Shown here: in pieces, positions 8,522 through 38,700 of the stretch
Numbering within the stretch: the stretch's first letter is position 1
Layout: every line of letters starts with the position of its first letter
From: Escherichia coli
Lineage (GTDB): Bacteria > Pseudomonadota > Gammaproteobacteria > Enterobacterales > Enterobacteriaceae
Length of the DNA stretch: 64,000 bases
Assembly (NCBI RefSeq): GCF_013122565.1
Contig: NZ_CP053258.1
Reading direction: 5' to 3' (one strand)
The notes under the pieces: model-generated
Databases searched by the model: none
What the model was told of the DNA's origin: nothing
What the model saw: only the letters and a program-made list of their open reading frames with translations
Program-made: the position numbers and the translations under genes

Positions 8522-11500
8522 TTATCCAGCGATAACATAACTCCTAAGGTCATTACCCGGGGCAACAGCTCGCGATCGCGTGTTTGCCAGCCGTTCAACT
8601 TGCTGCGGTACTCGCAGAGCAAAATCAAATAAGGTGTCTTCAATACAGCGCCAGTAGCTAAGCCCCATGTCGAGCAGGACATAATGCTGACTGCCATCGC
8701 TGAAGGTGACTGTCAGTTCTCGTCCATGCTCCGTACTCTGGTTATCCCCCGTTAACCAGCTAATTGCTCCCGGCCACGCAGGCCCCAGATATCCTTCTTC
8801 AAGTAAAGTGGTCACAACCTGCTGACGATCTTCCTCATTAAGCCACGCGTTATAGAGAGCGTCGTGTTGGCGAGAGTTGTAATCCAATTTTTTGACGCAA
8901 ACAGTGAGGCTGGCGCGTTCCGCCATTCCCTGTTCAACCAGCTCGGTTAAGATTTCACCTAACAAACGCGCCGTGAATGGGCTATTAAGATAACGATCGC
9001 TGTACTCAACATGCGTTATCTCTTTGTGGCGGGTAAATGCCTGCTTCCAGCCAGCGTGCTGTTGCGTGACTAACGACCAGAAACGCGAACCAAAACCTTC
9101 CAGCGGCCCGTCCAGTTGTTCACAGAGATTGATGCGCACCGCCCCGGTGGGTAAGGCGGGCAGTAAATCTTCTGCACTTAAGGTCTGACCCGAGAAGGTT
9201 TTTCCGGACGTTCCTTTAAGTGTCACTACTGGTGAAGACGCACTTTGTCCCCATAATTCACCAGGGGCAACGGTAGCGCTGTCGTCTGCGGCCCACTGTT
9301 GGCTTTGCCCTTCGCGAGTCACCTGCGCAAGCCAGCGCCCCTTTCCTTGCATGAGTTGCGCAGTGGCAATGGATTTCACTTGTAAGCGTCCTCCCGGCAT
9401 CGCCGCCAACGCGGAAAGCTGATGTCTGGAGCTATCAGTTAAGTTTTCCAGCGGCGTGGCCACCAGCAACTCAACATTCCCACCGGAGGAAGCAAACTGG
9501 AGCAACTCTTTAAATAATGGCCATTGGGCAAAGTCCCACTGTTCCTGCGGCCCCGCAAGAACCAGCGAGCAGGAGTCATAAATCTCGCTGTTCAGGCATT
9601 GCGCAATACGTAAACTCAGAGGGTTAGTTTCAACCCGGCTACCATCGCCGAAGTACTGATATTCTGGCGCGAGGTTAAGTCGCTGCAACCGTACATTGGT
9701 AAGCAGGGTTAATGCATGGTGACGATCTAATCTGTTGACATAATGCTGACTGTCGTAGCTGAGCAAGCAGTGGTGACAGAATTTATCGCAACTGCAATCG
9801 AGCAATTTTCTGGCGTAATTAAAGACATCAGCCCAATGGTCGATCAATTGCACTGCATAACCTGCACCACCCGCATTATTGTCGTAAATGAAGATGGAAT
9901 ATCCGGTATAGCCATTGATATCGCGCGCTTGCTGCGTCGTCACGCCCAGCTCAGTATTTTCGATACCCAATTTATGCGCTAACCCTTCACGCAAAGCGAC
10001 CGCAAGGGAACGCGCGGCAACCTCATCACGGATCAACAGGCCATTATCATCATTGAGTTGCAGCTCAACCATATCTGTACGACTGCTATACCCCAACCAC
10101 AGATCTTTATGCACATGACCGTGGCACAATTTATTGCTCCCCTGACGATCGTTACTGCCCCCTCGCAACAGGTAATGCGTATTTTCCCGCTCTGGGTTCT
10201 TTAGATTTTCAGGGGTACGCTGGGGTTGAGTTTGAGATTCTGCCCGACCACATGAGAGGCAAATTGCGTAGCCGTGCCCAAATTCCCCTTCACTGAAGTG
10301 GAACAATTCCCCACTATGGCTAAAACGGTAACGTCCTAGCCCAGCATCGGGTAAAGAAACCCACACCGAAGACGGTACAAGAACACGTGGATCTTTCCAG
10401 GGAAGTTGTGCAGGCATGGATACATCATTATGTGCCTGATAACGAATATCTGTCGCAAAACCAACAGGCTGTAAATAACGCTTCACATCAAGTTGCTGTA
10501 TATCCGCTTTGCAGTGACTACATTCGACAGGACGGGTAGTACTGGTTGCCCCCGCACCACATTTACGGCAATGCCAGAACCACGGAATATGATGATCGCC
10601 TGACAGCTCCTGCCCGCTGGCAAGTACCTTGCCAAGCATAATGCCCGAGGAACGATATACTTTTCCGCCCAATACCACATCTGCACCAGGCGCATACTCG
10701 CGTAATGCTGTAGGTAGATCACGGCTGGGCAATTTTTCAATACGACGAGAAAAGCTTTCTCCCCCTTCATTAGGGTCAGCCTGAGTGGCTTTTATTGCGC
10801 GACGTTTTTCCAGCTCATCTGCCGTCAGATAATTGAAATTGACTACGCCAACCGGGAAACCATGCCCCGGCAGGAACGCTTCACTAATGAGTTTAGAAAA
10901 CAGATATGCACCGCGATAATCACGAAGCTGATAAGCGATGGCTTTACCTGCTGGCGTTTCTTCCCACGCGCTGTTATCCGCCTTCAACGCTTCGATATTT
11001 TCCAACAGTATCGCAAGTTGGCTTCTCCAGCGGATATCAACCTGCTGCATCATTGCTTGTGTGCGGGTCAAGAGCTGGGTTGCCGTCAATGACATCAGGA
11101 CGGTTCCCTGAGTAAGGCGTTTAAGTTTATCCGCCAGCTGATCGGCCTGGTGATTTAACCAATGGAGAAAACGAAGACACTGGCTCTCATCACCTTCAAA
11201 GAACCATTTGCAACTCAGTTTTGTCGCATCAGGAACTTCAGCTCGTAAAAACAGACCTAAAACCAGGGCATTAACATGTCGTTGAACAATGCTACTGCTC
11301 CCAAAACGAACCCGTGGCGCACTGGCAGTAGTGTTGAACGCCCAGAGGGGGTCTTTGAATACCTCCATTCCATGCGCCGTGTTTTTACATAACGTAATGG
11401 CAGCAGATGCACTCTCTCCACGACGCCCCGCGCGACCTGCACGTTGCAAATAATTTGCCGGCGCTGGAGGAACGTTGTTCATTGCCACCAAACTCATACC

Positions 11501-25098: not shown

Positions 25099-25277
25099 AC
25101 CGCTCTTTCAAATATAATTCATTGAAATTAATGTGATTTATTAACCCAAAAATCACTTTGTATACTCACATGTATACTCAGCGCGATTCTCTGAGAAATC
25201 AACAACCTGAATAATCAGTCGGTACTTTAACGCTTCACAATGTTTATAGGAATTTCAAGTAAAGACAATGCTGCATA

Positions 25278-26225
25278 TCAAGCATTCAGGATGGCTAGCG
25301 CTAAGCTCCTAAACCTGGAGTAAGCCTCATCCCATGTGATCTTTCGCTCTCCATACACCATTGGCGAAACAAACTGCTGATAGCGCATCTCGTAGAGAGG
25401 ATTGTTCGCCAACTCATCCAGTCCCATTTTTAGCTCATCAACTGGAGATGCGCAAAACTGCGGGTACTGGTTGCCGTAACGCTGAATGTCCTGCTCAATA
25501 GTTTGTTGAACAAAATCAACGAGCTGACTCATATCAACATGACTCGTCTCAACAATACAGTTTGTATCGTAGATATGACGTACCAGCGATGCATCATCAA
25601 ATCGCTCAACATCTCGCACAACTGCCGCAGTACGACGTAACATCGCCACCAGCTTTTCTGCCTGTGTGCTAATGATAGTTGCACATGGAAACGCTGAAAC
25701 AATAGCCGCTTTTCCCGTGATCCCTGTTACCAGTGAATGAATATCCCGTAATTCAGAAGGCTCCAGTAACTTCGCTTCCATCAATTCCAGCCGGATAAAA
25801 GGACGCAAACAAGGTGCCTGCACCACTCGCTGTGGATAACGAACAGGTATGTCATTATAACGATATTCATCCCGCGTCACTTTTGGGTAATCATCATCAA
25901 AATTGAACACACCCGATGAAGCTATTGCACTGGAAACTGCCTGAACAATTTCTTTACGGGTATTTTTTCGCTGAGTGCGGGAAAGTGCCTGAAATGCATC
26001 CTTAGGCACCAGTTTGATATCCACATCTTCCGACATGCGATTAAGTGCGACACCTGATTTTGCCAGAGCGGTTCCTCCGGCAAACACCAATTGATGAGTA
26101 TCGAACACCAGAGGTTTAAGCAATTGCAAAAGCTCAACGATATAGTGATCTTTTTCCACAATTGCGACAGACTCAATACCAAGCGCGTCAGCCACTTCAG
26201 AAAAAAGAGTGGTTAAATCATCCAT
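25278..26225 (-). CDS. Nucleotidyltransferase-fold toxin, AbiEii-like (DUF1814-like)
   Basis: N-terminal region with GG..A....D.D motifs typical of minimal nucleotidyltransferases; overlaps upstream small gene by 8 nt. Confidence 0.6.
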   Translation of the reverse strand: MDDLTTLFSEVADALGIESVAIVEKDHYIVELLQLLKPLVFDTHQLVFAGGTALAKSGVALNRMSEDVDIKLVPKDAFQALSRTQRKNTRKEIVQAVSSAIASSGVFNFDDDYPKVTRDEYRYNDIPVRYPQRVVQAPCLRPFIRLELMEAKLLEPSELRDIHSLVTGITGKAAIVSAFPCATIISTQAEKLVAMLRRTAAVVRDVERFDDASLVRHIYDTNCIVETSHVDMSQLVDFVQQTIEQDIQRYGNQYPQFCASPVDELKMGLDELANNPLYEMRYQQFVSPMVYGERKITWDEAYSRFRSLALAILNA

Positions 26226-26613
26226 TTAATCTGCTGTTCCCTACAGATAATACGCGTTTAAAACGCCGGGGGGTTTTTATCTCGGGTGAAGCTGGGATCT
26301 GCGTAGAAGTACCGCTATTGTATGCCTGCGTTGCGCCAGCAAAACGATAGCGTACTTTCAGGCGTTCCAGCGTTTCGACAATCACCGCTGAAGAGCCTCC
26401 GGGAGCCGCTGGCATTACCTTGCCTGTAATACCGTTCCGCCGTGCTTTGGTATACACGCCATAACCAACCTTCAACAGTTGCCCTTCCCTGACAAGATCG
26501 CGCAATACCCGACCAACCTGATCGTAGCCTGCAATATCTTTAAAGTCGTCACGAGTGAATACGTAACGTTTAGAACGTTTCAGTCGTGACTGAATGCGTG
26601 CTTTTATCGTCAT
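26218..26613 (-). CDS. AbiEi-like antitoxin/transcriptional regulator (131 aa from ATG with strong RBS)
   Basis: ORF track start is at 26682, but ATG at 26613 is preceded by AGGAGG; basic N-terminus; stop overlaps toxin start. Confidence 0.5.
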   Translation of the reverse strand: MTIKARIQSRLKRSKRYVFTRDDFKDIAGYDQVGRVLRDLVREGQLLKVGYGVYTKARRNGITGKVMPAAPGGSSAVIVETLERLKVRYRFAGATQAYNSGTSTQIPASPEIKTPRRFKRVLSVGNSRLNG

Positions 26614-26645
26614 ATTCGCCTCCTGAGTCATTGCATAAAGAGTAG

Positions 26646-26689
26646 CAAAAATACGACATTTTAGATAGCAAACATACGACATTCATTTT
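26646..26689. promoter_or_regulatory. Two direct repeats of ATACGACATT in the promoter of the AbiEi-like gene
   Basis: Copies at 26651-26660 and 26674-26683, 23 bp apart; same core as inverted repeats at 35.2-35.3 kb. Confidence 0.4.
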
Positions 26690-27540
26690 GCTGATAACGC
26701 TGACGGAAAGTGCTTCGCCACGATATCATTCATCTTATCCACCAGATCCAGTCGCTTGAATGTGATATGCCCACTGCCCTTCTGAAAGTAGCGAATAGTG
26801 AATAACTCATCTTCGAAAATCTGCTGATGCGGATTATCGCGCACAAAATCCATAAACCGGATGGAGACATCATGCCGGTTATCGGGGATAGGTTTGCCAT
26901 CCAGCAAATAGAGCATACGCTCCAGATCGGCAAGCTGATCTCGCCGCCAGCCCCAGTTCAGGCTGTAGCCCCATCTGTCATGCTTCACCAGATTGTTAAC
27001 GATAATCTTCTTACCGAAATAACAGGGATTATTGGTTTTGTAGTCCCAGCTCAATCCCTTAAATACATTGATAATCCCACGTTCGAAAACATCCTGCTTA
27101 TTGTGGTGAAGTTGTTCAAAGGTACTCAGGATGTTGGCTTCGCTAATCGCCGGGAGATCACCCTCCTCCAGATTCTTTGCCCACTGACTGCGAGCTTCGG
27201 CATCCATCAGAGTCAGCATCCCAGACTTCAGCATGAGATCGCGCCAGATGCTGCGATCGATATTTCGGGTGATCACCGGCATGGCTTTATCCACCGGCTG
27301 CACCAGCCAGCAGTCGAAGGAATGGCCCTGACGCATCGCCCAATGCTCCGCCACATCACCACCGATGCTGGAGGTTAGCCGTGAGATATCATCAAGCTTA
27401 TGGATCAGGATTTCTATCAGACTCAACGCAGCATCACGACCCGTCACGATACGCTCAACATTGGTCGAGCAAATTAGCTCGTTATGATCGGTTAAGACTT
27501 CAGCTTCTGTTTGCATAATCTTTTGTCCGTGTAAAAGCAA
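26683..27540 (-). CDS. Conserved island protein (285 aa), possibly DUF4942-like
   Basis: ORF track; position downstream of a CbtA-like toxin gene as in CP4-type islands; family name recalled, not verified. Confidence 0.4.
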   Translation of the reverse strand: MLLHGQKIMQTEAEVLTDHNELICSTNVERIVTGRDAALSLIEILIHKLDDISRLTSSIGGDVAEHWAMRQGHSFDCWLVQPVDKAMPVITRNIDRSIWRDLMLKSGMLTLMDAEARSQWAKNLEEGDLPAISEANILSTFEQLHHNKQDVFERGIINVFKGLSWDYKTNNPCYFGKKIIVNNLVKHDRWGYSLNWGWRRDQLADLERMLYLLDGKPIPDNRHDVSIRFMDFVRDNPHQQIFEDELFTIRYFQKGSGHITFKRLDLVDKMNDIVAKHFPSALSAK

Positions 27541-27630
27541 ATGCGCCAGCCATGAACAGCAGGCGCATTATGCAGGGAGTTATGAGGGAAGTAATTTTGG
27601 CGATGTAAATCGGGAAGGAGACTTGCAGAT

Positions 27631-27972
27631 TCACCGTGCCGTGGTGTTATAGCAGCGGCGCAGCAGACCTGTAGCCTGCCGCGCCCGCAAAATATCGACC
27701 GCACGAAGATAAGGCGTCTGTTCCTGCCAGCTAAATCCTTTCCTGTCGATACGGATCAATTCGTACTTCTCCACCAGAAAATTGACGGCATCGACCAGAG
27801 TGATCCCGGCGTCTATGTGTTCCTGAATCACCTTTTCATTGTTGAATGGTGTGTCATTAAGATTCAGCCCGTAGTGCTGCTCCAGCAGGCGGGTCAGTAA
27901 TGTTTGCCAGACCACGATGGGCGACAGATATGACGTCGTCGCCCGCAGCGTCGTTGCAGGAATAATTTTCAT
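27631..27972 (-). CDS. CbtA/YeeV-family toxin (type IV TA, cytoskeleton-targeting)
   Basis: Strong similarity to remembered CbtA ([22 protein letters not shown]...[11 protein letters not shown]). Confidence 0.8.
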
Positions 27973-28002
27973 AACGATGTTCCGTATTAAGGAGGTTAAA
28001 AC

Positions 28003-28338
28003 TCAGCGTTGAGTGGGATAAATAGCGATATAGACGTAACCACAGGAACCCAGCGTATCGGCTTCGCAGGTTAGTCCTTTGGCGTATAGCGTGACGGTAC
28101 GTTGTTGGCAGGGGGAGAGTTCACCGTCAGCCAGTTTCAGCTCCAGTTGTTTCATCAGCACCGGAAAAGCCTGGTCGATATGCAGCAGATCCGGGGAGCT
28201 GAATTTCCCGGTGATTGCGGCCCGATCAGCCAGGTAATGCAGGTTATGTCTTTCCTGTACCAGTCGAGCAGTGAAGCGTGGTGTTACGGTACAGGGAAGC
28301 CCCCATTCTTGTTGCATGACCTTGTCCTTTTGCAGCAT
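28003..28338 (-). CDS. CbeA/YeeU-family antitoxin
   Basis: Similarity to remembered CbeA (WGLPCTVTPRFTARLVQE...HYLADRA...TLYAKGLTCEADTLGSCGYVY). Confidence 0.8.
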   Translation of the reverse strand: MLQKDKVMQQEWGLPCTVTPRFTARLVQERHNLHYLADRAAITGKFSSPDLLHIDQAFPVLMKQLELKLADGELSPCQQRTVTLYAKGLTCEADTLGSCGYVYIAIYPTQR

Positions 28339-28811
28339 TACAGCCAGCCCCGTTCGGCAAAAGAGAGGACATCCCCCGCCCCAATAATGAAATGATCCAG
28401 CACCCTCACTTTCACCAAATCCAGTGTCTTAACAATATTCGTTGTAATAAGTCTGTCGGCCCGACTGGGTTCCGTCACGCCGGAGGGATGGTTATGCGCA
28501 AGGATCACTGCTGCGGCATTGTGCCGTAGCGCAGATTTCACAATCTCACGGGGATGTACTTCTGTGCTGTTAATCGTGCCGAGAAATAGCGTTTCGTGTT
28601 CCAGCAGTCGGTTCTGGTTATCGAGGTAGAGCACAACAAACATTTCCCGCTCCTGTCGTGCCAGATGCAGTTGCAGCCAGGTTTTTGTGGAGTCAGAGGA
28701 AAGAAAAGATTCGCCAGGATTTCGTTGATATTTCTCCAGCAGACGCATCGCACGGCGGATAACGCGTTGTTCACTCACCGAAAATACCGGTGTTAGCATC
28801 AGTTCAGACAT
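28338..28811 (-). CDS. RadC-like JAB/MPN domain protein (YeeS/YfjY family)
   Basis: JAMM-like motif HNHPSG...S..D; CP4-type context. Confidence 0.8.
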   Translation of the reverse strand: MSELMLTPVFSVSEQRVIRRAMRLLEKYQRNPGESFLSSDSTKTWLQLHLARQEREMFVVLYLDNQNRLLEHETLFLGTINSTEVHPREIVKSALRHNAAAVILAHNHPSGVTEPSRADRLITTNIVKTLDLVKVRVLDHFIIGAGDVLSFAERGWL

Positions 28812-28840
28812 TGTGTTTCCTTTACTATTAATAGCGTTGT

Positions 28841-29659
28841 TTATGAGGCCAGTTGCAACATGTTTTCAGCCATCACCCACAGGGCGCGGTTGAGCCTGAC
28901 ATCGCCGTCGATGCCTTTAATGGCGCGGGTGTGCGTGCGACCACCTTTTGCCGTCCGCCCGTTTAAACCACCTTTGATCAGGTTCTCCTGAATTCGCTGG
29001 TAGGTCGTCCACAGATCGCCGGATTCATCCTGCCAGCGGCGCGGAGCCAGCAACTGGGATTCCGTCACTGGCTGGTACTCTTCGCCAAAGCGGTACGTCA
29101 GCGCCGCCTTTGCCAGCGCCTGTTGCGCAGGGGGAGGCAGCATCAGCGACTGCATGGCATCGCGTTTCTCTTCAACCTGGTCAAAAACACTGAGGACTTC
29201 ATAAGCGCCTTCAATCACTTTCTCCACCACATTGCCTTTATGCGGTACTCGTACTTCACCAAACGACTCGCCGCAGACCAGTCCGTTACAACAAACAGAA
29301 CGGAACAGCCCTGGCAGCATCTGATAAGAACTGGAACCGTCATGGCTGTTGAGCAGAATAATTTCCGGCACCTGGTTGCGATTGATCTGGTCTTCCCGGC
29401 GCAGACGCAGCATGTGTTTTGTATGCTCACGTTTACCCACATCACGAACACGGGTCTGGCAGGCAAAGAAAGGATGAAATCCTTCACGCTGGAGGTTATC
29501 GAGCAGGGTAATGGTGGGAATATAGGTATAGCGTTCGCTGCGTGATTCGTGCTTATTTTCCCCGAATACGCTGGGGACATACTGCATCAATTCGTCATGC
29601 GTTAATGGGCGATCGCGACGGATTTGATTTACGCGGCCAAAGCGGCTGGCTAAGTTCAT
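28841..29659 (-). CDS. DUF932-like island protein (YfjQ/YafZ-like)
   Basis: Size (272 aa) and position upstream of radC-like gene as in CP4-type islands; assignment from memory. Confidence 0.5.
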   Translation of the reverse strand: MNLASRFGRVNQIRRDRPLTHDELMQYVPSVFGENKHESRSERYTYIPTITLLDNLQREGFHPFFACQTRVRDVGKREHTKHMLRLRREDQINRNQVPEIILLNSHDGSSSYQMLPGLFRSVCCNGLVCGESFGEVRVPHKGNVVEKVIEGAYEVLSVFDQVEEKRDAMQSLMLPPPAQQALAKAALTYRFGEEYQPVTESQLLAPRRWQDESGDLWTTYQRIQENLIKGGLNGRTAKGGRTHTRAIKGIDGDVRLNRALWVMAENMLQLAS

Positions 29660-29845
29660 GGTAAATGCCTTAATAAAGAATATAAAAAACAGGGCCGCAG
29701 CTTCTGAAAAATTGCGGCTAATTTAATGCGTGATTAAAACGGACGGTAGTATAGGTGGGATAAAATAACAGGTACGTGCAGATATTAAATTACATTCCGG
29801 CAGTGCATATATGAAAGTGATATAGTGCTGAAATAATACATATCT

Positions 29846-29876
29846 GAATTCTCCCGGTGATAGTCACCGGGAGAAT
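29846..29876. terminator. Perfect 14 bp inverted repeat hairpin (AATTCTCCCGGTGA-TAG-TCACCGGGAGAATT)
   Basis: Read directly; located 20 nt after stop of the 317 aa gene on minus strand. Confidence 0.4.
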
Positions 29877-29895
29877 TTAAGTTTGAAATGACACC

Positions 29896-30849
29896 TCAAC
29901 CACGGGATAATCTTGTTTCTATTCCCTGAACTCTTTCGTCTATTAACCTTTCAATAACAGATATTTTATCTGACTTGTAAAATTCAACCAGAAAATCCAG
30001 ACGCTCTTTATGCGTATCACTGATAGACTCCCGTTCCCGTTTTTCAGAAAGTTTACGTCTGAAGTTTTTTTGGTAAAACGCTTTATTTAATTTCTTTACC
30101 GCTTTCTGCTGGAGATCATCATTCGCTGACCATAAATCCAGCATGGCATAAACGGCGTGATAGGTTTCTACACTATTCAGTGGTTCCGGGATCTGAACGG
30201 GGTCCAACTGGCTTCCTGTATTACTACCGTGCTCTTTCTGGAATTTATTAATGTAATTATAAGCCCATATCCAGACTTCGTCATTATCCTCATTAAGCCA
30301 GCGTAATTTTATTCTCTGATGTTCATTTGCCCTCCAGAATACAAGCCTCTCATATAGCCACTGTCTCATCAACGGTGCCTGATTAGTCTCAATATTAATA
30401 TAGTCCAGTAATGCAACGATGATTGAGTATCTTTCGCTATGGCTTGCAGGAGAATCTGTTATTCCGGCTTTCTGATACCAGTTAATGTTTAAATTTGTGC
30501 CCAGCTTTTCGTTAATTGACTCCATACAGCGGTAATCAAGACACATCACGCCCCATAGCCAGAACGTCGCTCTTTCATTTTCTTTTAACCAACTAAAATA
30601 TTTCTCCGGCAGAAGCATCGTATTAATCGACAGCTCCAGTGAGCGAATAAAATTACTTCGCTGAATGGGATCGGGATACCCGGCCTCGAGGGCTGTATTA
30701 ATAATTCTCTCCGAAAGAGATGTATCTGGATTGTTCCCGTCAAACGCAAATTGATTTGCTCCCTGAATGTTTTTCCTGATGTACCAGAAAAGAAACCTGC
30801 TGGTTCGGATGTCCTTCACTGCTATTGATGAGCGCACATTAACGGCCAT
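29896..30849 (-). CDS. Hypothetical protein (317 aa), no recognisable domain
   Basis: ORF track; long ORF followed by hairpin. Confidence 0.45.
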   Translation of the reverse strand: MAVNVRSSIAVKDIRTSRFLFWYIRKNIQGANQFAFDGNNPDTSLSERIINTALEAGYPDPIQRSNFIRSLELSINTMLLPEKYFSWLKENERATFWLWGVMCLDYRCMESINEKLGTNLNINWYQKAGITDSPASHSERYSIIVALLDYINIETNQAPLMRQWLYERLVFWRANEHQRIKLRWLNEDNDEVWIWAYNYINKFQKEHGSNTGSQLDPVQIPEPLNSVETYHAVYAMLDLWSANDDLQQKAVKKLNKAFYQKNFRRKLSEKRERESISDTHKERLDFLVEFYKSDKISVIERLIDERVQGIETRLSRG

Positions 30850-31441
30850 TGTTCTACCTCGTCATCCTTGTTAAATCAGCAAAAAGCAATAGCGTAATTA
30901 TGACGTGTTTTCGAAGTAAAACCGTAGCAATAAATCAATAAAAGTGGAAAACAAGTAGTAATATCGTGTTATTCCATAGTAATAGAGTACCATTAACGTA
31001 GTTTTTTATTTATCACCATACTCACAGCTTCCGCCCGTAGAAAACGGCTGGATAGTCTTAAATTTTTCCACGTATAGCCCTGGTGGCTTTACGGGTGAAA
31101 CCTCCCAGGATAACGAGTTGACATCTGGAAGATGTCATTCATGATCGCAACTCATAGATTAGATCAATGTATTAATTATAACTTAAGAGTGAAATTCTTT
31201 ATCTTCAGGAACAGATAATTAACTACGAACACCAGTAAATACCGGGCTTCTACTCTTTTTATCACCCTTTCTTTATGAATCAACATTGCCGGTATTAATA
31301 TTATGTTTATCACTCATTCATTAGATTCAGCATATAGAGGGATGACACCAGAGACAGGGAAAAGTAATCCAGATCGGCATAGCTCAGTGAAAAGTTACTA
31401 CAGCACTTATGGATATGTAACCAACCACAAGGAACTGAAGC

Positions 31442-32056
31442 ATGAAACTGAATGAACGATATGGCAAGCCTAATGCACACTATATGAAACGTCTGGAAGA
31501 GATTACTCGCTATGCGATGGAGGATTACGCCAGAATACTGGCTTTCAGAGTGGATTTATTACTGCCAGTGGGTAATAGCCATAAAGGGTATGATTCAGCG
31601 GTTATTACCCGTTTTATAGCCTCACTGAAAGCACAGATAGCCGCATATTTACAACGGCGCAGGAGAGACGGTAAACGTGTTTACCCCTGTAAGCTGCGAT
31701 ATGCATGGGTAAGAGAATTTGGCGAACTGAATGGCAACAAGCATTATCACATGCTGTTGTTGGTTAATCGGGAAGTATTCAGGAACACCATGCTGAATAC
31801 GGAGAATTCAGCGCAACCTCGCGGATTGCTGGTGGGAATGGTGGCGCGTGCATGGGCTGTGGCGCTTAGACGTACCGGAGATATGGCAAATAAAGCCCCC
31901 TTTCATTTACCGGGCGTCTCTTATGAACTGGACCGCAGAAATGGCACAAATACGGACTTTTTCCGCAGCTACATATACCACATCAGTTATCTGGCGAAGG
32001 AGTACACCAAAAACCACGATGACGGTGAACGTAACTTTGGTTGTAGTCAGGGATAA
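31442..32056 (+). CDS. YagK/YfjJ-family (inovirus Gp2-like) island protein
   Basis: 204 aa; HYHMLLLV motif and basic character as remembered for YfjJ/YagK proteins; low certainty. Confidence 0.45.
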   Translation: MKLNERYGKPNAHYMKRLEEITRYAMEDYARILAFRVDLLLPVGNSHKGYDSAVITRFIASLKAQIAAYLQRRRRDGKRVYPCKLRYAWVREFGELNGNKHYHMLLLVNREVFRNTMLNTENSAQPRGLLVGMVARAWAVALRRTGDMANKAPFHLPGVSYELDRRNGTNTDFFRSYIYHISYLAKEYTKNHDDGERNFGCSQG

Positions 32057-32173
32057 GTAATTTATTACCGGAGAAGTGATTGTAATGGCGGAGTATGCAA
32101 CATCATCTTAAATCAACGGGTTAGTGTTGCTGCTCCTGTCTTTTATCAACGTAAAGACAGAAGGACAATCGTC

Positions 32174-32392
32174 ATGAACAATCAACCGAATACCGATACT
32201 GACCTGATGAATGACAAACTGGTGACGATGGCATTTATTACCACGTTTACTGGCCTGACCGACAAATGGTTTTATAAACTGATTAGTGAAGGCAAGTTTC
32301 CAAAGCCTATCAAACTGGGGCGTAGTTCCCGCTGGCGGGAAAGTGAAGTTAAACGCTGGCTGACGGAACGTATTGCAGAATCCCGCTATTAA
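32174..32392 (+). CDS. alpA: AlpA-family transcriptional regulator / excisionase-like protein
   Basis: 72 aa; typical AlpA sequence (LTDKWFYKLISEGKFPKPIKLGRSSRWRESEVKRWL). Confidence 0.8.
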   Translation: MNNQPNTDTDLMNDKLVTMAFITTFTGLTDKWFYKLISEGKFPKPIKLGRSSRWRESEVKRWLTERIAESRY

Positions 32393-32594
32393 TCCCCCTG
32401 ACACTATCTCTACACGCTTTACCCATAACGCTATATCAGTGAGCGCCTGACAGGGCCGTTGCTGTGCATCTATCGACGTGTAACTTCATTATGCCCGGAT
32501 GAAATACGTTTCGTTTAACGTTGTCGAAAAATAATTAACCGGGGAATAGCCTGCTTATTTAGCAGAAATTCCCCGGATGCAGCCACAGATAAAA

Positions 32595-33380
32595 TTAGGA
32601 ATTAAATGTCCAGCTACCCGTATCGGTCACAATGTCAGCTTCAATGATACGGTCACACTTCATATATTTGAACGTAGCCACATCACCGAATTTATATTTT
32701 GCTGGCAGGGTTCTGTTACCGACGCTCTCCATTTTACAGTTCCCTCTGTTTACCCGAATGGATTTCAGCACCACGTTGTCATCAGTGATAGTGAGCTGAA
32801 TAACACCATATCTGGTATTCCAGCCTTCATTGCTGACGGAGCTGCCGAACTGAACTTTAAATGGTGGTGTCGTAGATTGCTGTACCTGCTGTTGTTGAGA
32901 GGGAGCAGGTTTATTAGCCTGCTGGCTACCAACGCTATTAATGCCATTCTGAAGGAGGCTCCTGGAAACCTTAATGGTACCCGGCTTGCATGATACTGTG
33001 CTGGTTTCCTGCCCCATTGCATTCATGACAGTGTAATAAGCATCACCTGTACCATCATATTCTGAGTAATTGACTGCAACCGCGCCTTCGATATCTTCAT
33101 TTTCTCCACGTAATGTGAAAGAAGCAGTTCCTGCTCCCGGATTAGCCGCCAGAGTCTGTTTCGCTTCGCCGGAAGGAATATCCAGTTTGATAACGGAACC
33201 ACCTTCTTCGGAGTCACCACCTGGCGTTTCAAAACTGATATAAACGGTATTACTGACGTGGCTGAGTGTCATTTGCTCACCGTTATCAAGCAGACATTGC
33301 AGGTCATAGGCCCCGACAGCATAAGCAGGGTGGAATGCAAATAAAGATACAAACAATACAGGTATAATGATTGGTTTCAT
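32595..33380 (-). CDS. Secreted protein of unknown function (261 aa): signal peptide, two Cys-pair domains, Q-rich linker
   Basis: N-terminal MKPIIIPVLFVSLFAFHPAYA signal peptide; 12 nt downstream of GTPase gene stop. Confidence 0.5.
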   Translation of the reverse strand: MKPIIIPVLFVSLFAFHPAYAVGAYDLQCLLDNGEQMTLSHVSNTVYISFETPGGDSEEGGSVIKLDIPSGEAKQTLAANPGAGTASFTLRGENEDIEGAVAVNYSEYDGTGDAYYTVMNAMGQETSTVSCKPGTIKVSRSLLQNGINSVGSQQANKPAPSQQQQVQQSTTPPFKVQFGSSVSNEGWNTRYGVIQLTITDDNVVLKSIRVNRGNCKMESVGNRTLPAKYKFGDVATFKYMKCDRIIEADIVTDTGSWTFNS

Positions 33381-33392
33381 TAAGCACTTTCC

Positions 33393-34406
33393 CTATCCAA
33401 AAAAATGGTCCCAGGCATTACCAGCCCACTCGATAAGTTTGTCTTTCCCCTTACGGGTAAGCTCTTTGACAGGCTTTGGTAACGGAAAAGAATCAATAAC
33501 GTCGTCGAGTATCCCGGAGATTACGCTGCCAAAGCCGTTTTTTGCTTCCGTCTTTACTTCGTCGGTTTTGAACTCATCCTTAACCTGCGAAGCCGTGCTA
33601 CTTTTAGCCCGATCAGGCAAAGCCCGAATAATAGTCTCTACCAGACGAAGAATGTTGTAGCCCTCATCGGCGGAGACAGGTGTCACCGGATAGTGCGTAA
33701 AACCAAATCGTTCAGTAATGTAGGCTTCTTTCTTTTCGATGTTGATGCGCTGTGCAGGAGATGGCTGATGCAGATGAGTATCCCACTCGCGGAATGGCTC
33801 AATTTTATCAACCTGGTTAAGGACGAATAAAACGCGCTCACCCCCACCAGCAGGGAGCAGAACATTGTTGTAGAAATGCTCATCCGCAGAAAAGGCCCGA
33901 TCGTCTCCTTTTATTACCCACAGGATAAGATCCAGGGAGGGAAGCAAATTGCGGTATAAATCTTCATACTCCTTATCCCGCCGGGCATTCTCACCGACAC
34001 CAGGTATATCAATGATCTTTAGCGAATGTTTGCCGAAGCGTATACGCAATTCCTGAACTTCGCGAGTACATGCCTCAACGTCGCTAACTGCACAAACCTC
34101 CCCTTTAAACAGCGCATTACATACGCTGCTTTTCCCCGCGCCTGTTTTTCCCATGACACCAATCACGGGTTCATAGTCGATGGCTTCACTGATTTTGTTC
34201 AACAGCTTTTCCCGCAGTGGCTGAGGGAAAATATCAAGAATATCCCTGATGTCGGGTATGTGCGGTTTGCTATCACCTTTTTGCTCGTTGCTACCATTAC
34301 GTTCTGGAAATATATTGCCCCACATTCCAAAAATCCCGCCTTCCCTTCTGGTGACGCCACTGGCATCAGTAATCATCCGGCCTTCGCCCTTTACCGGGTC
34401 ATCCAT
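33393..34406 (-). CDS. YfjP/YeeP-family GTPase
   Basis: P-loop GKTGAGKSS, DIPG, NQVD motifs (G1/G3/G4). Confidence 0.75.
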   Translation of the reverse strand: MDDPVKGEGRMITDASGVTRREGGIFGMWGNIFPERNGSNEQKGDSKPHIPDIRDILDIFPQPLREKLLNKISEAIDYEPVIGVMGKTGAGKSSVCNALFKGEVCAVSDVEACTREVQELRIRFGKHSLKIIDIPGVGENARRDKEYEDLYRNLLPSLDLILWVIKGDDRAFSADEHFYNNVLLPAGGGERVLFVLNQVDKIEPFREWDTHLHQPSPAQRINIEKKEAYITERFGFTHYPVTPVSADEGYNILRLVETIIRALPDRAKSSTASQVKDEFKTDEVKTEAKNGFGSVISGILDDVIDSFPLPKPVKELTRKGKDKLIEWAGNAWDHFFG

Positions 34407-34445
34407 ACGAGGTCTCCTTTTTTAATTTGAAATAAACGTTGTCTG

Positions 34446-35216
34446 TTACTCTCTGAAGGTCTGAATTACGTCACTTATGAAACGAAAGTGAGGGAGGGCT
34501 GAAATGAACTCTTCACTGGCAGTCAGAGCGTCAAGTTCAGGCTTTCTGCGAAAAGAAGTATCCAGAACAGTTACAGCGTTAACGTCTTCCATCCGAAACA
34601 CCTGTAAATTTCTGGTGCGGGTAGCAACAAGAAACCAGTTTTTGGACTGAAATATCAGACGGCGGGGAGCTACTGCTTCGTAGCTTTTACCGTTAACTAA
34701 TAATGTAACGGCGCGGTAGTCGCGGATAGCTTCCGCCAGTTCCAGAAAACAGGCAGTCTGCGTGACGGGAGAAGATAATGCCCCATGCCCAATAAGACAC
34801 GGCGATACGCCGGAATTGCTGGCAATCAACCGGATCAACTTGCGGTTCTGAGCCGGAATGATTCCTGAAATTCCTGAATTACGTATAAACGCAAATGTAT
34901 TGGGTGAGTGCTCCCGGCCTGTTTGGCGGATAAGTCGGTAACTTCCGCTGCGATGCTCAAGATCCAGATGGATCAGGCGTTGCTGAAAATCCCGCTGTAG
35001 GGTGCGTTCTGAGACACCAAATTCATCAGCTAATGCTTTAAGCTCCAGAGATTCGCCAGCCAGTAAGCGGCTGATAATGACCGATAGCCTGACAGACAGG
35101 CGGTCATAATGATCATGCTGTGTTTTCATAGTGGGGACAGTCCTGTTCTCCCAAAATATCATGGTATTGATACAGGAGATTATGCCGTACAGGTACGACA
35201 CGTTATGTCGTACCAA
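34446..35216 (-). CDS. HTH plus WYL-like domain transcriptional regulator (YfjR-like); true start probably internal ATG at 35162 or 35129
   Basis: HTH-like segment (LADEFGVSERTLQRDF); C-terminal WFLVA-type WYL-like segment; ORF track start is TTG at 35216 and overlaps an operator-like palindrome. Confidence 0.55.
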   Translation of the reverse strand: MVRHNVSYLYGIISCINTMIFWENRTVPTMKTQHDHYDRLSVRLSVIISRLLAGESLELKALADEFGVSERTLQRDFQQRLIHLDLEHRSGSYRLIRQTGREHSPNTFAFIRNSGISGIIPAQNRKLIRLIASNSGVSPCLIGHGALSSPVTQTACFLELAEAIRDYRAVTLLVNGKSYEAVAPRRLIFQSKNWFLVATRTRNLQVFRMEDVNAVTVLDTSFRRKPELDALTASEEFISALPHFRFISDVIQTFRE

Positions 35217-35339
35217 ATGGGGAGTGGTTTGAAAAAATGGCGAAGATGCGAAGAGTTGATTAATTCATTGAAATAAAATGAATTAATAATGATTTTGGGT
35301 AAAAGCGGCATCAAAATACGACACTACCTGTCGTATTTT
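35194..35339. promoter_or_regulatory. Operator-like inverted repeats containing the TACGACA core upstream of the WYL regulator gene
   Basis: GTACGACACGTTATGTCGTAC at 35194-35214; AAAATACGACA-CTACC-TGTCGTATTTT at 35313-35339. Confidence 0.45.
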
Positions 35340-35706
35340 GTGTTAGCCGGGAAAGGATATCTGTTACTTACTAAAATGATTTAGTGCTGAAAATATTTAT
35401 AAGCTAATAAATAGACAGGTATTACGGAGTAACGCCCAGGCTATGTTAACGAGCCCGCTGTTTTATTGGCTCAAAAAACATATCCCATAGATGTTCAGCC
35501 ATACCCTCGTTAGTGAGCAAGGTATCCCTTGAGTAGCCAGGGCTGAAGACGCCCATTGATGGGCGAAAACCAAGGATCTGGCCGTTAGAACAGTTATGTC
35601 GTTAAACACATCACCACCATATGCCATCCGGCTCACTTCGTCGGCCAAATTAGTGTGATATTCTTTCCAGAAATGCTGTTGTATCCACGACATAAGGCGA
35701 TGATTG

Positions 35707-38700
35707 ATGGAGCAGTCTCTCAATTTTGAAATGTTGCGCAGCCAGTGGCCGGAACTGGCTGAACTCGCGTGCATGGCGGAACACTATGTTCACTCCGATC
35801 CGGAAAGCTGTCTGGTCAAGCTGCGCAACTACACCGAATTGATGGTGCGCTGGTTGTATCGTCAGGAGCGGTTGCCGGAAGGTATTAAGGCTAATCTTTA
35901 CGATTTAATGAATGCTGATGTCTTTACCAGCATGATGCCGGAAGCCATCATCATGAAAATGGATGCGCTGCGTATCCATGGCAACCGTGCCGCGCACGGC
36001 GGACGTATCAAAGCTAAAGATACTTACTGGCTGCTCAAAGAAGCGTATTTGTTGGGAATTTGGCTGTATGTTCGCTACGCCCACGGTAATGTTGATGACT
36101 GCCCCAAATTTACACTCCCTCCATTAACACCATCTTCAGGTCGTGCAGATGAAAAACGTCTGGAAGATGCAATCAAGGCTCAGGATGAAAGCCGTGAGCG
36201 CGAACTGGCGCTACAACGCGCACTACAGCAAGAACAGGAAAAGGCCGAACACCTCACTCAACGCCTGAATGAAGCCAGAGCGCGTAACCAGCATGTTGCC
36301 GATATTCTCTCTATTGATGAAGCGGAAACCCGCCGTCGCCTGATTGACTCTCGCCTGCTTGCTGCTGACTGGAATGTAGGCGAAGAACTTAATAATACCG
36401 ATCAGGTCACGCAGGAACACCCCGTTAAAGAACAACCTACTGCAACCGGTGACGGTTATGCAGACTATGTCTTGTGGGATGAGGCACACAAACCGCTGGC
36501 GGTGGTGGAAGCCAAAAAAACTAGTGTCAATGCCGAGCAAGGACGAATTCAGGCCCGGCTGTATGCAGACTGGCTGGAAAAAGAATACGGTCAGCGTCCG
36601 GTCATCTTCTACACCAACGGCTATGATATCTGGCTGTGGGATGACCATAAAACTCATGGTTATCCCCCGCGTCGGGTGTTTGGCTTCTACAGCAAGGAAA
36701 GCCTGCAATATCTTATTCAGCAGCGTGAAACCCGTCTGCCGCTGAACAGAGTGCCACACGTAAAAGATAACGAAGGTAAGGCCGTTGCCGGACGTTTGTA
36801 CCAGCTCGAAACCATTGCCCGCGTCAGTGAACGGTTTACCAACAAGTACCGACAATCGTTAATTGTTCAGGCTACGGGTACAGGCAAAACCCGCGTGGCA
36901 ATTGCACTAAGCAAACTGATGATTGATGCCCGCTGGGTAAAACGCGTCCTGTTTCTTTGCGACCGTAAAGAGCTGCGTAAACAGGCGGCAAATGCCTTTA
37001 ATCAATTCACCAATGAGCCGCTGTATGTGGTCGGGAAATCGAAGAAAGCAGACAGGCAGAACGCCAGGATCTACATCGCTACCTATCCCGGTATGATGAA
37101 AATCATGGACCATTTCGATGTCGGATATTTCGATCTGATTATCGCCGATGAATCCCATCGCTCTATCTACAACGTTTACGGCGATCTGTTTAAGTATTTT
37201 GATGCCCTCCAGATTGGCCTGACGGCCACGCCGATCGACATGGTGAGTAAAACGACTTTCGGCCTGTTTGGTTGTGAAGGACGTATCCCTACCGCCAACT
37301 ACAGTCTGGAAGATGCCATCGCCGATAACAATCTGGTTCCCTATGAGGTTGTCACGCACACCACAGAATTCCTGCGCGAAGGCATCAAACGGGAGAAATT
37401 AAGCGACACACAAATCCGCGAGCTGGAAGAACAAGGCATAGATCCCAATACGCTGGAGTTTGATGGCAAGGCGCTGGATGAGGCGATCTACAACAAAGAC
37501 ACCAACCGCTATATCCTGCGTAACCTGATGGAAAATGGCCTGAAAGATCGGGACGGCCAGTTGCCAGGTAAAACCATCATTTTCGCCCGTAACCACAAAC
37601 ACGCGCTGCTGTTGAATGAATTGTTCGACGATATGTACCCGCAGTTTGCCGGGCGCTTCTGCCAGGTCATCGACAATTACGATCCCCGCGCCGAGCAACT
37701 GATTGATGATTTTAAAGGGCTGGATGAAAGCACTAACAAAGAGCTAACCATCGCTATCTCCGTTGACATGCTCGATACCGGTATTGATGTCCCGGAGATT
37801 GTGAATCTGGTCTTTGCCAAACCGGTCAAATCAAAAGTGAAATTCTGGCAGATGATTGGCCGTGGTACGCGCCTCTGTCCGGGGTTGTACGGTTACGACG
37901 ATAACGGCAAACCTCTGGATAAACAGAAATTCCGCATTTTCGATCACTGGGGCAATTTTGAGTATCACGAACTGCATACCGAAGAGGCCGAAGTCACAGC
38001 GACAAAATCGCTTGCACAAAAACGCTTCGAAGCGTGGGTTATGCTGGGGGCCGCTGCGCAACGTAAATTCGACAAACAGGCGGTGGATTTAGTTGCTCAC
38101 CAGCTTCGCGAGCAAATCAACGCACTGGATGAAAAGTCGATTGCCGTACAGGAAAAGTGGCAGCAAAAAGCGCAGTACAGTGATGAAAAGGTGCTGCGCC
38201 AGCTTTCTCCGAAAACACAGCAGGATCTGCTATCTGTTCTGGCCCCGCTGATGCAGTGGCTGGACGTGCGCGGGCAAAGCGATGCCATACGCTTTGATAT
38301 GGATATTCTGGCGGCGCAAACTGCCCGTTATACCAACCCGGAAGAGCTGGATGTGCTCTGGCCGGCCATCGTCGAAAAAGTGGAGCGCCTGCCGCCGCAT
38401 TTGGCGCAGGTGCAGCAACAGGGACAGCGGATCAATCAGCTTCGTGATTTAAGCTGGTGGAAGCAGGCCAGCCTGGAAGAGCTGGAGGATATTCGCATTC
38501 ATTTGCGCGGTATCATGCACCTGATGGAAAAAGACGCGACGCCTAAATTTGGTTCGATACAGGTGGATATTACCGAAGATGCGAACCTGATCCAGACGGA
38601 GACCCGCAAAACTAATATCCGCTCGATTGATTTCAAACTCTATCGCCAGCAGGTTCAGGGGGCGCTGGAGCCGCTGTTCCAGCAAAACCCGGTTCTGAAG

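Follow-up and report, generated by a model that had tools for sequence, protein, structure and literature searches.

A leuX genomic island of Escherichia coli probably carries two separate self-regulation circuits, AbiE and HTH-WYL, that share a short sequence

Known AbiEi and WYL regulators and the leuX island

The AbiEi protein of Streptococcus agalactiae and Rv2827c of Mycobacterium tuberculosis repress their own operons through repeats in the promoter, and two monomers of S. agalactiae AbiEi sit on two 23-bp repeats, one per repeat (PMC7319586). BrxR, a WYL regulator, binds inverted repeats of 10-11 bp with a 5-bp spacer, has two such boxes in its island, and can bind and repress through a single half-site (PMC9122601). 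Regulators of both kinds are encoded in a 64,000-nucleotide (nt) stretch of an Escherichia coli genome (contig NZ_CP053258.1 of assembly GCF_013122565.1; hereafter the window), where an AbiE module and a helix-turn-helix (HTH)-WYL regulator gene of the YfjR family lie in a leuX-tRNA genomic island that is 97% identical to the island of E. coli W. A preliminary description of this DNA proposed that one regulator, plausibly the WYL protein, binds the motif TACGACA upstream of both genes and controls both itself and the AbiE module. Sequences, positions, conservation and the association of each set of sites with its own gene can be read directly from the loci compared here. They point instead, with good probability, to two separate self-regulation circuits that happen to share a short sequence; we infer, rather than read from the loci, that the proteins bind these sites, which way they regulate and that a signal is involved.

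As in the studied AbiE systems, the module in the window consists of two overlapping genes, for an HTH antitoxin and a DUF1814 toxin, with two promoter repeats just before the start codon. Unlike in those systems, the antitoxin is of the short DUF6088 type (131 amino acids, aa), and its repeat units are direct repeats of 16-18 nt at 23-24 bp, whereas the studied operators are 23-bp inverted repeats 3 or 13 bp apart. The AbiE self-repression proposed here would therefore follow an established mechanism, with the repeats arranged differently. The WYL protein resembles BrxR and CapW in its N-terminal HTH and WYL domain and in the location of its gene beside variable defence systems, and it resembles BrxR further in arm length, in the 5-bp spacer upstream of its own gene and in the presence of two boxes. 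Unlike BrxR and CapW, it is 227 aa long rather than 266-329 aa, its predicted model shows only two short C-terminal helices where these proteins have a WCX domain, and its gene is transcribed away from the cargo instead of heading a defence operon. Both operator predictions are ordinary in kind, although the literature searched contained nothing relevant on the WYL protein in leuX islands and described neither specific operator.

The AbiE module and its direct repeats

The AbiE assignment of abiEi-abiEii is firm. AbiEi matches PADLOC model PDLC02229 (E = 3.1e-53) and the Pfam families DUF6088 (3.8e-7) and AbiEi_4 (2.4e-5), and AbiEii, a DUF1814 nucleotidyltransferase, matches PADLOC model PDLC02297 over residues 1-313 of 315 (E = 5.5e-128). 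AbiEi has no sequence match among PDB structures. The features of the module are as follows:

25278-26225, minus strand: AbiEii nucleotidyltransferase toxin gene, with an 8-nt overlap with abiEi at 26218-26225 (PADLOC, RefSeq annotation)
26218-26613, minus strand: AbiEi antitoxin/regulator gene, 131 aa, DUF6088/AbiEi_4 HTH (PADLOC, Pfam, RefSeq annotation of E. coli W)
26619-26624: AGGAGG ribosome-binding site of abiEi
26643-26660, minus strand: promoter-proximal AbiEi repeat unit, AATGTCGTATTTTTGCTA on the gene strand, ending 30 nt before the AbiEi ATG
26666-26683, minus strand: promoter-distal AbiEi repeat unit, AATGTCGTATGTTTGCTA on the gene strand, beginning at the last base of the DUF4942 stop codon
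26683-27516, minus strand: DUF4942 gene of the island backbone, its stop codon abutting the distal repeat

The direct repeats ATACGACATT lie exactly where they were first described, at 26651-26660 and 26674-26683, and each is part of an 18-nt repeat, TAGCAAA(A/C)ATACGACATT, at 26643-26660 and 26666-26683, whose two copies agree at 17 of 18 positions and are spaced by 23 bp from start to start. AbiEi homologues and their upstream DNA were gathered from 13 distinct loci, and in 12 of these DUF6088-AbiEi loci a pair of direct repeats, spaced by 23-24 bp, closely precedes the ribosome-binding site, including loci on plasmids of Acinetobacter, Aeromonas, Vibrio, Shewanella and rhizobia. When upstream regions were shuffled, the best 14-mer repeat hit reached 12/14 once in 400 trials; the 12 loci gave 11-14. 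The repeat units found at successive AbiEi identities are:

E. coli (window), 100%: TGTCGTATGTTTGCTA / TGTCGTATTTTTGCTA
Pantoea and Hafnia, 82-84%: units near-identical to those of E. coli
Acinetobacter plasmids, 67%: ATGTCGTATTTTTGCT in two perfect copies, which is also the core of the proximal unit in the window
Aeromonas plasmids, 55%: TGTCGTGTTTTTGCA / TGTCGTATTTTTGTA
Shewanella and Vibrio coralliilyticus, 45-48%: TG(C/A)CGTATT in both copies
Ensifer, Rhizobium and Bradyrhizobium plasmids, 40-45%: GTCGGGT-N-TTTGC in both copies, 24 bp apart

A core, TGTCGT(A/G)T-N-TTTG, is common to E. coli, Pantoea, Hafnia, Acinetobacter and Aeromonas, with variation in the last 2-3 bases. As AbiEi diverges from 84% to 40% identity both copies change together, the pattern expected of the protein's own binding site. 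We therefore propose that abiEi-abiEii is a type IV toxin-antitoxin or abortive-infection module with a self-regulation circuit of its own, in which the operator would consist of two head-to-tail units of 16-18 nt, (A/G)TGTCGTAT-N-TTTGCTA, 23 bp apart, and one AbiEi monomer per unit would repress the abiEi-abiEii operon. As a by-product, the comparison predicts the operator of DUF6088-type AbiEi antitoxins, a little-studied branch whose domain is named in only three papers of the literature searched: direct repeats at 23-24 bp, present from Gammaproteobacteria to Alphaproteobacteria.

One may argue that the repeats are duplicated core-promoter or mRNA-leader elements rather than a protein operator. 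At the Rhizobium locus a clear promoter, TTGCGT-17-TATATT, brackets the first repeat, which lies exactly in the 17-nt spacer, with the second repeat after the -10 element, and the other two alphaproteobacterial loci have TATATT between the repeats, so that the units overlap promoter elements. However, both units co-vary with AbiEi whereas promoter hexamers would stay near consensus, the spacing of 23-24 bp is fixed, and proteins of the AbiEi family are demonstrated autorepressors that bind repeats (PMC7319586), which together make this explanation highly improbable.

Strain BE2-5 (locus L005) keeps 1.5 AbiE repeats beside McrBC, in what looks like the scar of a replaced AbiE module. The repeats were also considered as the 3' flank of DUF4942 or a junction with the backbone, which their persistence beside McrBC in BE2-5 might suggest, but this was rejected because they follow AbiEi in Pantoea, in Hafnia and on plasmids, and because BE2-5 holds a truncated remnant. 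The DUF4942 gene is a neighbour outside the AbiE circuit. Matches in viral contigs were limited to the E. coli AbiE locus, present there twice in near-identical form.

The HTH-WYL regulator and its palindromes

The WYL gene, the genes downstream of it and the two palindromes upstream, named O1 and O2, are arranged as follows:

32595-33359, minus strand: 254-aa hypothetical gene, downstream of the GTPase-family gene
33393-34406, minus strand: GTPase-family gene, which with the 254-aa hypothetical gene lies immediately downstream of the WYL gene
34446-35129, minus strand: HTH-WYL regulator gene, YfjR family, 227 aa, start ATG at 35129
35179-35184, minus strand: candidate -10 element CATAAT of the WYL promoter, read from homologue alignments
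35192-35214: O1, proximal palindrome, ending 63 nt upstream of the WYL ATG and just upstream of CATAAT
35312-35340: O2, distal palindrome

The WYL protein is 41% identical to YfjR of E. coli K-12 (BLASTP, residues 1-225 against 1-225, E = 1e-55), and 12 WYL homologues share 59 invariant columns. Its Pfam matches, HTH_11 at residues 14-49 (2.9e-4) and WYL at 128-187 (1.1e-3), are both weak; the PADLOC WYL match is at 1.4e-17. No sequence-level match was found in PDB. With an AlphaFold model (pLDDT 74), the top 20 Foldseek matches in PDB are all PafBC, CapW, DriD or BrxR, at E-values of 1.5e-6 to 9.5e-4 with low TM-scores (0.28-0.47) and about 14-18% identity. After the WYL barrel the model has only the helices 197-204 and 206-225, and the protein is 40-100 aa shorter than its structural matches.

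The palindromes reported in the preliminary description are real, with its coordinates 1-2 nt off. O1 is GGTACGACA-cgtta-TGTCGTACC (35192-35214), with perfect 9-nt arms, and O2 is CAAAATACGACA-ctacc-TGTCGTATTTTG (35312-35340), with perfect 12-nt arms; both have a 5-nt spacer, and they lie 123 bp apart. The same description took the position of O1 inside the N-terminal part of the listed reading frame to mean that the gene starts at an internal ATG, and ATG 35129 is indeed the true start: RefSeq annotates it so, and homologues of at least 75% identity as well as K-12 YfjR align from residue 1. Its further suggestion that the WYL protein controls itself gains support from the palindromes, whose positions are kept in most close homologues; the comparison took in 18 loci from other genera together with several E. 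coli strains and K-12 yfjR. O1 stands at -83 and O2 at about -205 (about -203 to -206) from the ATG in most homologues of 75-100% identity, and in the 52-54% identity group an equivalent of O1 stands at -81. When 6/7 arm matches are required, no palindrome is scored at one locus and a single one in the 52-54% group and at K-12 yfjR; more distant WYL homologues have one site or weaker sites. The common core of the palindromes is GACA-N5-TGTC, within which the half-sites differ by group:

Close clades: TACGACA and GCGACA
52-54% identity group: TTTGACA/TGTCAGA
Leclercia (L024) and K-12 yfjR: CGGACA-N5-TGTCCG

Among E. coli strains the arms are fixed and the spacers vary (taacg/taaag/taatg and ggtag/ggttg/ggtcg). 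The recognition helix reads SERTLQRD where half-sites are CGACA or TGACA and S(I/V)RTLRRD where they are CGGACA, so that its residues appear to track the half-site, a suggestive pattern given that there are only two CGGACA lineages. The CATAAT element is conserved after O1 in homologues down to about 52% identity and is not clear at K-12 yfjR. The WYL promoter was placed from these alignments; a consensus promoter/terminator scan of the locus returned nothing on the gene strand and did not report CATAAT.

Most likely, the YfjR-family HTH-WYL protein would bind as a dimer to the two palindromes, nCGACA-N5-TGTCGn, of which O1 would cover the -35/spacer region of the WYL promoter and O2 lies 123 bp further upstream. 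The position of O1 just upstream of the -10 element suggests that binding would repress an operon of the WYL, GTPase and hypothetical genes until a signal reaches the WYL domain. These three genes probably are co-transcribed as an operon, and the adjacency of WYL and GTPase genes is retained in loci L008-L015. For YfjR-family WYL regulators, which in E. coli-type islands sit at the edge of a hotspot of defence cargo, the comparison predicts an operator of two nCGACA-N5-TGTCGn sites, at about -83 and -205.

K-12 YfjR, encoded in the cryptic prophage CP4-57, is set in the same kind of island backbone as the window protein, with GTPase, DUF932, RadC and CbtA/YeeU-type genes. A perfect CGGACA-ccacc-TGTCCG palindrome (CGGACACCACCTGTCCG) lies 189 nt upstream of yfjR (L030 16517-16533), near the O2 position. 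Unlike in the window, the half-site and the recognition-helix residues are of the other type, the proximal site is degenerate and the gene order differs. A table in a study of E. coli regulators by genomic systematic evolution of ligands by exponential enrichment (gSELEX) gives the yfjR operon as a target of YfjR (PMC8249747), and no DNA site of YfjR itself is reported in the literature examined (PMC8464067, PMC8249747). The CGGACA-N5-TGTCCG site is a concrete candidate operator for K-12 YfjR.

In Xenorhabdus mauleonii (L025, about 9882-9936) a WYL gene with homology ending after 99 residues is preceded by two tandem copies of the O1 palindrome with its flank, GGTACGACATAACGTGTCGTACCAGTACTGCATA.

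One shared regulator or two circuits

TACGACA is common to both loci, as the preliminary description held, but its frequency in the window is near random, which speaks in part against the weight placed on it there: nine copies were observed against 5.23 +/- 2.07 expected, an enrichment that is not significant, with 6 of 100 shuffles reaching nine. The remaining three copies (9751, 9880 and 32868) all lie within open reading frames (ORFs). Unlike the bare heptamer, the structure around it exceeds chance, with two perfect palindromes of the same half-site 123 bp apart and an 18-nt tandem pair. Relaxed scans of the window for extra palindromes or AbiE units returned the known copies and background-level matches inside ORFs.

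The two loci share more than the heptamer. The identical 11-mer AAAATACGACA occurs in the proximal AbiE repeat, at 26648-26658, and in each arm of O2; the O2 arms in the window, W, Cn5, Ecol_244 and 1105 each carry 11 nt of the 16-nt AbiEi unit, TGTCGTATTTT. For one random pair of an 18-mer and a 12-mer from the window, sharing of at least 7 nt by chance has a probability of 1-1.7%, and of at least 11 nt about 2e-5. A single WYL regulator acting at both loci would account for this match, both loci lie in the same island, and BrxR acts through a single half-site and has its second box elsewhere in its island (PMC9122601). However, Acinetobacter plasmids and those E. coli islands that have no WYL gene carry AbiE units of the same sequence. 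The units are direct repeats at 23 bp, and the abiE promoter has no inverted partner at a 5-nt spacing (partner positions match 3/7). The conserved AbiE unit also reaches 9 nt past the shared part, with a TTTGCTA extension that the WYL sites lack. Conversely, no AbiE repeats were found after DUF4942 in WYL islands without AbiE (L006, L008, L018, L019, L024, L040 and L042), and strain 755, Pantoea and Hafnia have other outer arms of O2 without a corresponding change in the AbiE units. The distribution of the elements within E. coli is as follows:

AbiE and WYL, O2 arms AAAATACGACA: window, W, Cn5
AbiE and WYL, O2 GCGACAggttgTGTCGTT (GCGACA...TGTCGTT): strain 755
AbiE, no WYL gene in the island: M1, SA31-1
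WYL with O2 arms AAAATACGACA, no AbiE in the island (CopG/RelE cargo): Ecol_244, 1105

The AbiE repeats in the leuX islands of M1 and SA31-1 are identical to those of the window, and AbiE and WYL elements assort independently within E. coli. At the plasmid AbiE loci checked, no WYL gene lies within 3 kb, and a tblastn search with the WYL protein against 72,556 plasmids gave 54 records, nearly all from Enterobacterales; in the plasmid hosts the search for WYL genes covered the plasmids and not the chromosomes. Control of the AbiE module by the WYL protein is thus not supported, since the repeats are a family feature of DUF6088 AbiEi promoters, including those on plasmids of genera whose records gave no YfjR-like match, and we regard the one-regulator model as very unlikely. 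The sequence of each element appears to be explained by its own gene family, and nothing points to selection for the match between them. A shared regulon would have tied the island regulator to a toxin-antitoxin defence module; the comparison argues against it and averts a wrong annotation.

Coupling in the reverse direction, in which AbiEi would also bind O2 and link the toxin-antitoxin module to the WYL operon, could draw on the presence of TGTCGTATTTT in both O2 arms of the five strains named above. But the same O2 arms occur in islands without AbiE, O2 lacks the TTTGCTA end that is largely conserved across the AbiEi family, and the O2 core tracks the WYL family, not AbiEi, so that the probability of this coupling borders on negligible. 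No sequence similarity was found between AbiEi and the WYL protein, and for this reason a common HTH specificity of the two was rejected.

Incidental binding of the WYL protein at the abiE promoter is conceivable because BrxR binds a single half-site and the 11-mer is exact. By analogy with BrxR, a YfjR-like WYL repressor might thus bind the abiE promoter by half-sites in islands that share AAAATACGACA, which we consider distinctly unlikely. If it did, release of the WYL protein by its signal would at the same time increase expression of the abortive-infection genes, and two mobile modules would have become cross-wired opportunistically rather than having inherited a common regulon from an ancestor.

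Several observations weigh against the two-circuit explanation or parts of it. Known AbiEi operators are inverted, not direct, repeats; the region upstream of Synechocystis AbiEi has no direct repeats and that of Vibrio tapetis has one copy only; and at the abiE repeats of E. coli the consensus promoter/terminator scan found no convincing sigma-70 promoter on the gene strand. For K-12 YfjR, chromatin immunoprecipitation with exonuclease digestion (ChIP-exo) found no DNA binding (PMC8464067). Finally, for a single pair fixed beforehand, a match of 11 nt such as that of the AbiE unit with the O2 arms has the low probability given above, and a chance origin is comfortable only after many implicit comparisons are counted.

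Island context and the surroundings of O2

The remaining features of the region are:

After the DUF4942 gene, minus strand: cbtA, yeeU, radC, DUF932 and a hypothetical gene
35373-35410, minus strand: conserved 38-nt block beyond O2, TTATTAGCTTATAAATATTTTCAGCACTAAATCATTTT on the gene strand (alignment of 14 upstream regions from several genera)
35704, plus strand: start of hsdR, 364 nt from O2

The leuX islands are modular (25250-26652 and 35420 onward in the window; loci L003-L006 and L040-L046): the cargo on the WYL side is hsdRMS, a TIR-domain gene or an ABC-three-component system, and that on the DUF4942 side is AbiE, McrBC or CopG/RelE. The WYL gene thus borders a cargo hotspot, and O2 might mainly control the variable defence genes transcribed away from it, here hsdR, rather than the WYL gene itself. 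Regulators of the BrxR family do control neighbouring defence genes (PMC9122601), and strain C9 has O2 and the hsdR leader without an adjacent WYL gene. Yet most close homologues have O2 irrespective of their cargo, with conserved backbone running about 80 nt past it; a TIR-gene remnant intervenes in the 364 nt before hsdR; and the consensus scan found no outward promoter. Control of the cargo as the main role of O2 is therefore unlikely, and it is compatible with, rather than opposed to, two self-regulation circuits.

The 38-nt block is conserved in Escherichia, Xenorhabdus, Photorhabdus, Citrobacter, Buttiauxella and Pantoea. It marks the outer limit of the conserved regulatory region, since homology of the backbone stops there and gives way to variable cargo, and it could be a second promoter or a site for another protein. 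An Rfam search of the region between the WYL gene and hsdR gave only sub-threshold chance matches. E. coli Ecol_244 has an intact TIR-domain gene (L004 5000-5977), of which the window retains, in the same region, a stretch matching the 3' end (35443-35587); this remnant, between the WYL regulatory region and hsdR, lies within a 103-aa ORF on the minus strand (35463-35774).

In strain C9 (L002 4100-4127) the O2-type palindrome upstream of hsdR is AAAATACGACAcgaccTGTCGTAATTT. This island ceases to be homologous to the window near position 35214, where O1 has its edge, and Nissle-type islands do so near 35218. Recombination may have joined islands repeatedly at the border of O1.

One of the TACGACA copies within ORFs, at 32868-32874 on the minus strand inside the 254-aa hypothetical gene, is conserved in six further islands of E. 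coli that were compared, probably for what it encodes rather than as a site. Shortly before the start of hsdR, at 35594-35602 and 35687-35695, TTATGTCGT and ACGACATAA form a 9-nt inverted pair 84 nt apart; it contains the ACGACA core, is kept in strain C9 (L002), and is arranged unlike O1 and O2.

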